From the NCBI GenBank assembly GCA_026023565.1, contig JAPETS010000037.1:1-64000 (forward strand): 64,000 nucleotides of DNA, given 5' to 3'. The DNA is from Cirrosporium novae-zelandiae (taxonomy: Eukaryota). The notes under the pieces were generated by a model that worked only from the letters and a program-made list of their open reading frames with translations, had not been told where the DNA came from and did not search any database. This document shows positions 35,007 to 37,773 of the stretch, in pieces; positions within the stretch are counted from its first letter, which is position 1; each line of letters opens with the position of its first letter. A program made the position numbers and the translations under genes.

Positions 35007-35963
35007 CTAGTTAGCTTTGAGATGACTACTTTTCAAAGGACTTCCTAATGCTTCTTGGAGGAACGCAAAGGCTTTCGTGCAAGCTTGAAAGCTTTGGTAG
35101 AGTAAGGCTATTATGGTCCGTTAGTGCTGGATGTAACAAACAGGTATAAATATGTGATAACTACTTACACGAAGGAATAATGATCCAGATGATGTTCATG
35201 AAGAAGTAGTAGCCCCAGAAATAGTAGGCCTCTGGACGGGAGTAGCTCAGACCTTTGTAGTAGTCGTCGAATATATTTGTCGCATAGTATAGCACGTCTC
35301 CATATATCTGGCCCAGAGATACGATCAATTGTAGTGGGTGACGCATTGGATGTTGGATCGTGATGAAGTAGGCTACGAGTAGGGAGAGAGGACCCCAGCA
35401 GAGCTATTCGAAAGGGCTATATTAGTATATATTACCATAGGATGCACTTGTAGGATATATTTACCGCGGTGATGGATTCCATGCATAAGACAAACGGATC
35501 AGATGTAAGATAACGAGAGTCTGAGAGCGCATATTCCTTCCATAGCTGCCCGAAAAGATCTTGTTGACCTCCCATATGAGTGTGGTTCAAACAGAAATAT
35601 CCTAAGCAGAATTAGCATTGAACTACCTGGTTGTCAAGCCGAGATCTCACCTTCAAAGAAGAAATGAATGCAACCACCTATATTACTATCAATTACTGCA
35701 GCTCTGGAAAGAGGGAGGAGCCCGCACATACTCAAAACAAACCAGAGGATGATGCTCCTCTCTCGACGACTAAGATTTGGCTTATTCCATGAAACCCATG
35801 CAAGGGTAGAGCCCAGCACCCCTCCGCATGTTCCAGCAAAGATAGCAAGGAGCGTAGAGACAGACCATTCATTGGCTAGATAGCCAACGATTTCGGTCCC
35901 GATAGGATAGTAGGGGTTATGGGAAGGGGAAAGGTTAGTGGTATTCATCATTACAGTTTCCAT
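35007..35963 (-). CDS. Emopamil-binding protein (sterol delta8-delta7 isomerase family); exons 35963-35732, 35677-35651, 35601-35465, 35403-35169, 35107-35007
   Basis: WFVLSGCIHFFFEGYF, QLWKEYALSDSRYL, MESITA, GQIYGDVLYY, YFFMNIIWIIIP. Confidence 0.92.
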
Positions 35964-36418
35964 ATTGAAAGAGGGAGTGGAGAGACTTCAAGATTAATGA
36001 GCTTGAGAAAGTGGTTATTGAATTTTTTTTTTTCAATTGGAATGGAAAAAAGAAAGGAAATGTCTTCACTTCTCAAAATTACTTCCCCAGCCCAGGATTC
36101 GTACGCCAACTACCAGGAAAGGCACCAGTCGGATGGGCTAAACCCCCGGCGTGGGGTGGGATGACACCACCGGGGTTCAATAGCATCCGAGAAGCCAAAG
36201 TCAACGTTCATTTCGAAACTCCAGATATCTGAATATCTGAATTATATACAGAGTTATCTTCCCTAGCAATGAGATAATGATGATGATGATGATGCCCTAT
36301 AAGCTTCTTCAATCCTACGGACTAATAGCAGCCGTAGGGCGGACCGGCCCTTCTTCCTAAGCACCTAGCTACTTTGCCTGCTGTTTGCTATATGATACCA
36401 AACAAAATAGGATCCTGC

Positions 36419-36489
36419 AGCGAAGTAGCCAATACTACAACATTCAAACAGAAATTTGGTCGTGGTGCTCTGCATCACCTTCGCTTTTT
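36419..36489 (+). ncRNA. Candidate tRNA-like Pol III small RNA, copy 1
   Basis: Closing stem GCGAAG/CTTCGC, A-box-like TAGCCAA, 7-bp 3' hairpin GTGGTGC-TCT-GCATCAC, T5 run, TATA-like element ~30 nt upstream, GTTCAATAC B-box at 36501. Confidence 0.4.
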
Positions 36490-36690
36490 GTAGCTTTCAA
36501 GTTCAATACCGACTAGATTCTTTCTTTCTTTCTTTCTATTTTTTTACTTCGTTACATAGAATTGTTTTCACCATTCAGGTTTCAGACCCCTGCAAAACCT
36601 ACCACTCAGATCATCTCTATTACAAAATCCTAGTTTACTGTGGTAGGCAGGAGCAGTGTCGTTATAATCCAGTTTGTGAAGTATCTCCCC

Positions 36691-36768
36691 AGCGAAGTTA
36701 GCCAATAACTCTAACACTTTGTTGGACTAAAAAGTTCTGGTGGCTTCATGTCGCCAGCTTCGCTTTTT
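36691..36768 (+). ncRNA. Candidate tRNA-like Pol III small RNA, copy 2
   Basis: Closing stem GCGAAGT/GCTTCGC, TAGCCAA, internal hairpin TCTAACA-CTT-TGTTGGA, 7-bp 3' hairpin TGGTGGC-TTCAT-GTCGCCA, T5 run, TTATAA ~30 nt upstream, GGTTCGATCTC B-box-like at 36798. Confidence 0.45.
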
Positions 36769-37365
36769 GTTTTACTTGGCTGCAGTCTTGTCGTGCAGGT
36801 TCGATCTCTACCATCTGCCCAGGGCCTGCATTTTCTTTTTATTGCTTTTTAATACCTTGATTACTTTGTATTCCTTTAAGAGATTGAAAAACTTCAATCA
36901 TCTGCCTCCCGAAGCTCTCTAGAAGCTGTCGAAGGCTCGAGCATCTGCACCTGAGTTCATTTTCTAAAAGAATCATAATGATCATCTCAATCTTCTTTCG
37001 GTTCTATAGAATACTCAGCAGCATGTGCATATGAAATCGAACGAGCACATATTCATCCTTGAGACATCCATGTGGTTAGTGTTGGCTGTTTTCAAAGGTC
37101 ACATCTTGGTAGACTATAAAGAATACATGTCATAAATGAACCCCAACCAACGTTGACGATCATGATTCCATCAAGATTCCTTTTTTTTGGTTTCCATTCA
37201 TTCCAACTGAAGAGACAAAAATTACGTAGTTCCCACTAACCCGACCACTCCTTACTTCCTCTACACAGCTTTCACTAGCAAAACTGCAATTAAGATCTTT
37301 CTACCCGCCTCCAAAACCAGCGAGACCCCCCTAGACTCTCTCAATTCCATAAACAAGGTCTCCCA

Positions 37366-37773
37366 ATGTCAGATCTATTAATTTCCCCTCCAGCACCTCT
37401 TCCTCTCCCTCCTCGCGGCGGTCCCGTCCAAACAGCTGTCTTCGGTCTCCACACTTGCGTGCAGTCCTCATGCAGCCAGGGCAGCTGCAACAAGACAGGG
37501 ATGACGCTTCAGTGCGTCGACGAGATGGACGCCGGCCGCGACATGGTGTACCAAGGAACATATATGGAGTGTGATGGCGACAAGCAGAGCAATTGGACAT
37601 ATTTCTCTTGCAAGTGTGTTATGGATAAGAGGATCTGCCATTCTGCTATCCCAACGCCCACTGCAACGAGTGGTGCTCCTCCTTCGATATACTATGGAAG
37701 GTCGATGGAGCCATTGGTGATGATTGGATTTGCCTTTTTCGTGATGAGAGTATTCAAGGTCTGGCTTTTTTAA
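37366..37773 (+). CDS. Small 8-Cys protein with Thr/Pro linker and hydrophobic C-terminal tail (GPI- or TM-like); 5' end uncertain
   Basis: 135-aa ORF with 8 Cys in about 60 aa, PTPTATSGA linker, PLVMIGFAFFVMRVFKVWLF tail. Confidence 0.55.
   Translation: MSDLLISPPAPLPLPPRGGPVQTAVFGLHTCVQSSCSQGSCNKTGMTLQCVDEMDAGRDMVYQGTYMECDGDKQSNWTYFSCKCVMDKRICHSAIPTPTATSGAPPSIYYGRSMEPLVMIGFAFFVMRVFKVWLF

Follow-up and report, generated by a model that had tools for sequence, protein, structure and literature searches.

The Saccharomyces cerevisiae SNR6 gene carries a TATA box upstream, an A box inside and a B box behind its terminator (PMC5855946, PMC5356446; statements taken from these and the other cited papers refer to the portions of them available). 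Yeast also possesses orphan RNA polymerase III (Pol III) loci, namely ZOD1, YGR033C, RNA170 and the ETC sites, which display Pol III signals without a cloverleaf and a function of an obscure kind; tRNA ancestry is described for ZOD1 (from tRNA-Ile) and YGR033C (from tRNA-Arg) (PMC5356446). The Class I RNAs of Dictyostelium comprise short, multi-copy transcripts of 42-65 nt that are driven by a DUSE promoter and combine a stem joining both ends with a conserved motif by the 5' strand and a variable interior, and one of them binds an RRM protein (PMC7919456). In Neurospora, Pol III transcribes milR-1 to milR-4 from intergenic loci that carry TATA-like elements and T runs; milR-4 is tRNA-linked, and the RNAs are made as hairpin precursors, of which pri-milR-1, about 170 nt long, has no A or B box (PMC3547838).

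The whole stretch of DNA analysed here (the window, 64,000 nt) is the beginning of contig C60 in the 31.4-Mb assembly of Cirrosporium novae-zelandiae, a member of the Xylobotryomycetes (Pezizomycotina). A DH/PH-domain protein encoded in the window is 100% identical, across the 381 residues compared, to one assigned to this species at NCBI, and the next matches reach 73%. Between a minus-strand gene of the EBP family (start near 35963) and an ORF at 37369, it contains two units of about 70 nt with common 5' and 3' ends, which had been proposed in a sequence-only reading and can be read directly. Their starts (36419 and 36691) are 272 bp apart, as claimed there, and their lengths to the stem end, 67 and 74 nt (71 and 78 nt with the U tail), come close to the 65-72 nt given. 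The spacer DNA had been called unalignable, and indeed shuffled sequences score as well in 232/300 trials for the spacer and in 194/300 for the downstream DNA. A third member, L034, was recovered on contig C62, and the predicted RNA lengths across the three members are 71-82 nt. Both loci are intergenic and lie upstream of housekeeping genes, namely the EBP-family gene in the window and, next to L034, a gene that, judging by its sequence, we take to be Sec61-alpha-like. The orphan ORF at 37369 is followed by Hsp104/ClpB. The orphan ORF (37369-37773, plus strand) has 134 codons, is Cys-rich with a hydrophobic C-terminus and may lack upstream exons; no homologue was found among 31 candidates and no convincing match in the Atlas. 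The features of the family are as follows.

36419-36485, plus strand: unit 1 to the stem end, intergenic
36389..36396, plus strand: TATA-like box of unit 1, at -30 from the predicted start
36419..36489, plus strand: predicted RNA of unit 1, 67 nt plus U tail
36419-36425 with 36479-36485, plus strand: closing stem of unit 1, 7 bp, from the fold
36426..36432, plus strand: A-box-like TAGCCAA of unit 1, at +8
36428-36432, plus strand: D-stem-like helix of unit 1, can pair with 36456-36460 and closes a 23-nt A/C-rich loop
36462..36478, plus strand: 3' hairpin of unit 1, flush on the closing stem, without T-loop motif; its 17 nt equal a T arm in length
36485..36489, plus strand: T5 run of unit 1, Pol III terminator predicted from sequence
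36500..36510, plus strand: B box of unit 1, outside the transcript, flanks pairing 1/5 as T stem
36691-36764, plus strand: unit 2 to the stem end, intergenic
36663..36670, plus strand: TATA-like box of unit 2, at -28
36691..36768, plus strand: predicted RNA of unit 2, 74 nt plus U tail
36691-36697 with 36758-36764, plus strand: closing stem of unit 2, from the fold
36698..36730, plus strand: middle arm of unit 2, an 11-bp helix whose 10-nt loop carries TCTAACAC
36699-36705, plus strand: A-box-like TAGCCAA of unit 2, at +9, paired into the middle-arm helix
36737..36757, plus strand: 3' hairpin of unit 2, 8 bp, flush on the closing stem
36764..36768, plus strand: T5 run of unit 2, predicted terminator
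36798..36808, plus strand: B box of unit 2, outside the transcript, T for C at tRNA position 61
C62:228794-228869: third member, L034, from the pattern screen

All three members carry a TATA element at about -30, the A-box motif at +8 to +11 and a T5-T7 run with a B box 10-30 nt behind it, and this order (TATA, internal A box, T run, downstream B box) is of the SNR6 type in 3/3 members, as had been proposed for the two units. Among the 16 distinct places in the genome where TATA, TAGCCAA and T5 follow one another, members included, a B box stands within 70 nt after the terminator in 3/3 members and in 0/13 look-alikes; in the window, a B-like motif 5-35 nt behind T5 accompanies 4 of 226 T5 runs, two of which belong to the units. 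The TATA-like elements, the T5 runs and the B-box-like motifs past them were confirmed where the sequence-only reading had placed them, the B box of unit 2 being off consensus at one position; the TAGCCAA motif is also present, but at +8 and +9 rather than +7/+8. In contrast to SNR6, the RNA of the family is not U6, two genes for which are found elsewhere in the genome, and the distance from A to B box is about 75-100 bp instead of about 200. The 5' geometry is SCR1-like, with the TATA and A-box spacing of this genome's own SRP gene, in which the TATA distance is -29/-30 and an A-box-like motif is found at about +9. Since the distance from TATA to the first A of the closing stem (-30 in unit 1, -28 in unit 2 and about -29 in L034) equals that in the SRP and U6 genes (-28 in the latter), transcription most likely starts at this A, with no leader. 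The outside B boxes have 1/5, 4/5 and 2/5 T-stem pairs around them in the three members respectively; as the flanks form no T stem in 2/3 members, the box would work as a DNA element, and with these pair counts the reading of the units as the 5' part of a tRNA with a T arm at the downstream box was rejected.

The U6 genes (L037 and L038; C63:774556-775075, minus strand) form a tandem, 419 bp apart. In the first, TATA stands at -28 and a B-box match, inverted, is found 65 nt upstream of the gene, with none inside; the second diverges in its 5' portion before the ACAGAGA box, shows no clear TATA and is preceded by a B-like motif that is likewise inverted but weaker. The location of the U6 B-box match outside the gene makes outside B boxes plausible in this genome.

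Units 1 and 2 are predicted to fold into a three-way junction of a closing stem, a middle helix and a 3' hairpin. The closing stem of 7 bp joins both ends and is paired in 21/21 cells across the three members; its fourth pair changes from G-C in units 1 and 2 to C-G in L034, a compensatory swap that 177/500 shuffles reach and that, with three rows, is not significant. The middle helix, absent from the sequence-only reading, begins with the GCCAA of the A box, whose pairing partner is a TTGG in the interior. The 3' hairpins are flush on the closing stem, as claimed, but that of unit 2 has 8 bp and not 7, and the arms described as different share TGGTG, which is common to the 5' arms of units 1 and 2 in register. 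The flush hairpins otherwise differ in sequence, with three different bottom pairs, and 10, 6 and 1 of 300 shuffled interiors are as stable as those of unit 1, unit 2 and L034, respectively. The z-scores of the whole-unit folds are -2.19 for unit 1 (7/200 shuffles), -3.75 for unit 2 (0/200) and -1.76 for L034, the folds of unit 1 and L034 being modest (29/300 shuffles each); the lowest-energy fold of L034 differs from the shared fold, which is 0.4 kcal/mol higher. Interiors and spacers of the members are not alignable, while both strands of the closing stem are kept. Two intron readings of the units were rejected: a minus-strand intron with a branch motif and AG at the 5' ends, since L034 does not keep it and the plus strand carries every Pol III signal, and internal GT-AG introns of 27-38 nt, which are too short and non-canonical. 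Two nearby stretches, 36125-36205 and 36305-36385, also form hairpins, but without significance (z -1.64 to -0.01); a long GC-rich hairpin at 36130-36200, upstream of the EBP gene, contains a B-box-like motif (z -1.18 and -1.64).

No hammerhead motif, C/D box or H/ACA box was seen by eye in the units. Y RNAs and vault RNAs are Pol III RNAs of about 80-110 nt with a terminal stem and a U tail; the family differs from them in having no Ro-type bulged helix and in the location of the B box outside the transcript, and this reading fits poorly. A search of the genome for TROVE (PF05731; Ro60/TEP1) yielded 0 candidates, with 2/14 controls detected and with intron-rich genes or gaps that could hide one, and a search for the vault protein, whose controls also went undetected, is uninformative. 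Even at E values as high as 10, no Rfam 15 family, with Class I RNA, snoRNAs and ribozymes included, matches the units; none reaches the gathering score anywhere in the window, and L034 has no Rfam match. The Dictyostelium Class I RNAs have the same architecture as the family; this is a likeness of architecture across kingdoms without homology, and their promoter, their smaller length and their many more genes set them apart (PMC7919456).

The search for further copies, which the sequence-only reading had called for, led to L034. A strict end pattern run over the 31.4-Mb genome, with the reversed pattern as a control, gave 2 matches, units 1 and 2, against 0 in the control. The pattern of TAGCCAA, T5 and B box gave 8 matches against 3 in the control; the 8 include both units and L034, which was recovered by a pattern requiring neither TATA nor stem, yet carries both, and was recovered again by patterns without the B-box requirement. 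Its TATA lies between -27 and -31, its terminator run is a T7 and its B box fits the consensus; the loop motif TCTAACAC recurs in unit 2 (4/300 shuffles as good), and the DNA from TATA to start is common to L034 and unit 1 (0/300 shuffles as good). BLAST of either locus against the genome finds only the query itself. After six further pattern screens the family stays at three, plus one doubtful case, L142, and patterns with A-box variants gave no further member in the genome. L142 is the one case yielded by the T5-plus-B places (46/50 examined, with 3 members and 1 duplicate excluded) and the TATA-AGC-GCT rows (38/44 examined, with 5 member rows and 1 likely mitochondrial-contig row excluded) taken together. 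Among 15 loose matches, L005, inside a coding frame, and L043, at an intron end, were rejected as members. The doubtful fourth member (L142, the same as L253; C43:162432-162502, plus strand; 67 nt) has a perfect 7-bp closing stem with three pairs unlike those of the family, a TATA at about -33, a T5 run and, 30 nt on, a B-like motif, which falls on the antisense strand of the final codons of a long ORF running convergently; it has neither TAGCCAA nor the 3' hairpin, its fold z is -0.68 and it gives no covariance-model match. The model was run on selected loci, and members with other ends may escape. In metagenomes, the exact end pattern occurs in 10 stretches, which all lack the layout of TATA and B box and were taken as chance; their best model score is 27 bits, compared with 100-113 for the training members. 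Viral contigs gave 0 matches.

The earlier claim of an uncatalogued family is supported, with neither a tRNA nor an Rfam call and now with a third copy and one compensatory pair, and the three loci are a genuine, small, uncatalogued family of putative genes. No description of a family-like RNA was found in the literature searched, which consisted mostly of non-subscription papers without their supplements, and RNA lists for A. fumigatus or Neurospora in such supplements could contain a relative. In the available part of PMC8216456, which tabulates 17 fungal RNAs, none is described like the family, on a comparison of descriptions and not of sequences.

Several observations connect the family with tRNA genes. 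ARAGORN reports 0 tRNA genes in the window and RF00005 does not match the units with E values up to 10, as had been expected. The folds of the units have no anticodon arm and no T-loop, in agreement with the earlier statement that neither contains a TTCRA loop, and the units have no discriminator and no CCA. Of 43 tRNA genes compared, the one for tRNA-Arg(UCU) (L075) comes first for the 5' end of unit 1 and for that of unit 2, with five acceptor positions in common; 15/100 shuffles match as well for unit 1 (not significant) and 0/100 for unit 2. The same gene ranks 1/43 against the B-box region of L034. The hairpin of unit 1 agrees with the tRNA-Arg(UCU) T stem at 7/10 positions (6/1000 shuffles), tied with three other tRNAs, and the last 25 nt of unit 2 are identical to its 3' end at 15/25 positions (rank 1/36; 2/1000 shuffles). 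The 3' hairpin of unit 2, in which TTC of the T-loop is kept and the remaining loop changed, looks like a decayed T arm. The 3' hairpin of L034 has no T-arm signal, tRNA-Arg(UCU) ranking 23-30 of 36, and whole-unit alignments to tRNAs are not significant (35, 78 and 45 of 100 shuffles as good). All these tests were chosen post hoc, after the likeness had been seen, and the tRNA set is incomplete. The family probably descends from a tRNA gene, with the donor uncertain. The likeness to the tRNA acceptor and T arm, which had been proposed as mimicry, looks more like tRNA-gene ancestry. The T-loop, discriminator and CCA are missing, the stacked helix has 14-15 bp instead of the 12 of tRNA, and L034 is without the T-arm signal.

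Other RNA genes of this genome deserve mention. Two initiator-type tRNA-Met genes (L079 and L086) begin with AGC and close with GCT, which are the first three closing-stem pairs of the family; this may be chance. Two tRNA-Trp(CCA) genes (L127, C39:34570-34707, minus strand; L128, C39:42056-42190, plus strand) have variable loops split by inserts of about 63-66 nt resembling mRNA-type introns, with a GTAAAT start, a GCTAA branch motif and a TAG end; no further clear case was found among 31 examined of 68 pattern matches. A dispersed repeat of about 60-80 nt (L221-L224; contigs C71, C78 and, twice, C53), present at 4 loci, one with two copies, contains a good B box and a tRNA-like 3' half and may be a SINE-like family of tRNA origin. 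The genome has five full U2 snRNA genes, and the RNase MRP RNA match spans 485 nt compared with a 266-position model; RNase P RNA had no match in the genome, the controls being equally undetected. Contigs C35 and C47 give identical matches in many searches, at equal or nearly equal coordinates, so the assembly seems to contain that region twice.

Taken together, the family is probably a variant of the tRNA-derived orphan Pol III gene type, with transcription predicted from sequence. It resembles ZOD1, YGR033C, RNA170 and the ETC sites in its Pol III signals outside a cloverleaf, its probable tRNA ancestry and its obscure function, and differs from them in consisting of three paralogues with a shared fold and a compensatory change; no sequence relationship is implied. 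There is about an even chance that the three are paralogous stand-alone Pol III genes, derived from a tRNA gene, that make stable protein-binding RNAs of 71-82 nt. TFIIIC would bind the A box within the transcript together with the B box beyond it, TFIIIB would sit on the TATA box, and Pol III would start at the closing-stem A and stop in the T run. The resulting RNA would finish in a 3' oligo-U stretch to which La can bind, and it should need no RNase P or Z step. The ancestral tRNA gene would have kept its acceptor stem, the start of its D arm and its T stem and lost the anticodon arm and the T-loop, that is, the internal B box, this loss being rescued by a B box behind the terminator. The RNAs, presumably neither charged nor decoding, may serve as protein-binding decoys or scaffolds that offer a constant surface, made up of the closing stem and the adjacent conserved motif, and leave the interior free to vary after the manner of the Dictyostelium Class I RNAs; the partner would most likely be a protein reading tRNA acceptor ends or Pol III transcript ends. 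More tentatively, the family may represent an undescribed class of Pol III RNAs of filamentous ascomycetes, in which tRNA genes exchanged the internal B box for a post-terminator one, freeing the RNA for a new fold. Such RNAs might serve as acceptor-stem decoys that cannot be charged, their first three pairs being those of this genome's initiator tRNA, or, less likely, as helpers that pair with the branch sites of mRNA-type introns in Pol III transcripts.

A different role for the same ancestry is a possibility of some standing, though a doubtful one, namely that the loci are old tRNA-gene relics kept as DNA, serving as TFIIIC/Pol III boundary or nucleosome-positioning sites of the ETC or ZOD1 type in divergent promoter regions, with any RNA being a weak by-product. 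In favor of such sites are the preservation of the TATA, A and B boxes above all other features, the tRNA-ancestry signals, the position of both loci upstream of housekeeping genes and the precedent in the available part of PMC5356446. The closing stem and the flush hairpin, however, are not promoter elements and are kept with changed sequence, and the stem strands stay while interiors and spacers have diverged beyond alignment.

It is unlikely that Pol III makes the units as precursors of microRNA-like RNAs, from which Dicer or Argonaute would release the 3' arm before the T run as a guide. The Neurospora parallel drawn in the sequence-only reading has in its favor that the T runs of milR-1 to milR-4 directly follow the small RNA and that milR-1 requires TATA-like elements (PMC3547838), and 4 Piwi-domain matches are present in this genome. 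Owing to the branching of the fold, the parallel is a poor one: the shared fold of 71-82 nt is a three-way junction with helices of 5-11 bp, a duplex with secondary stems fails the hairpin criteria in the available part of PMC9757828, and even L034 offers at best about 15 interrupted pairs in place of an unbranched hairpin. Moreover, the would-be guides differ among the paralogues while the closing stem is constant, and all begin with A, not U.

There is very little to be expected from a role as antisense guides or decoys in splicing, with the 5' motif pairing with branch sites or a loop pairing with U2 snRNA. The 5' segment of unit 2 does pair over 13 bp with the branch region of the L127 tRNA-Trp intron (-17.0 kcal/mol, 0/100 shuffles as good), 8 nt in the loop of unit 1 are complementary to the part of U2 snRNA that binds the branch site, and CTAAC occurs in the loop of unit 2 and L034. 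Against this, 5/6 segment pairing tests are no better than shuffles, the A box is nearly palindromic and therefore antisense to branch-like sequence by itself, the pairing segment is partly locked in the closing stem, the register varies among members, and no Sm site was seen. Least probable, and largely refuted, is a low-copy SINE or MITE family, for which the tRNA-related Pol III promoter, the dispersed copies, the 7-bp inverted repeat formed by the ends and the low copy number of Aspergillus SINEs (PMC5063351, available part) could be cited, since there are 3 copies only with unalignable interiors and no common target-site duplication (none in unit 1, scattered 6-mers in unit 2 and L034), retrotransposition would leave behind the B box, which is not part of the transcript, and the TATA and upstream DNA common to unit 1 and L034 point to DNA duplication.

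If expressed, the three genes would constitute a paralogous RNA family overlooked by Rfam and tRNA scanners and would provide a concrete route from a tRNA gene to a new RNA gene, the constraint of the T-loop being removed once the B box had moved outside. The set of Pol III transcripts of filamentous fungi is poorly charted, and the layout of TATA, A box, T run and B box is a simple search rule for similar genes.
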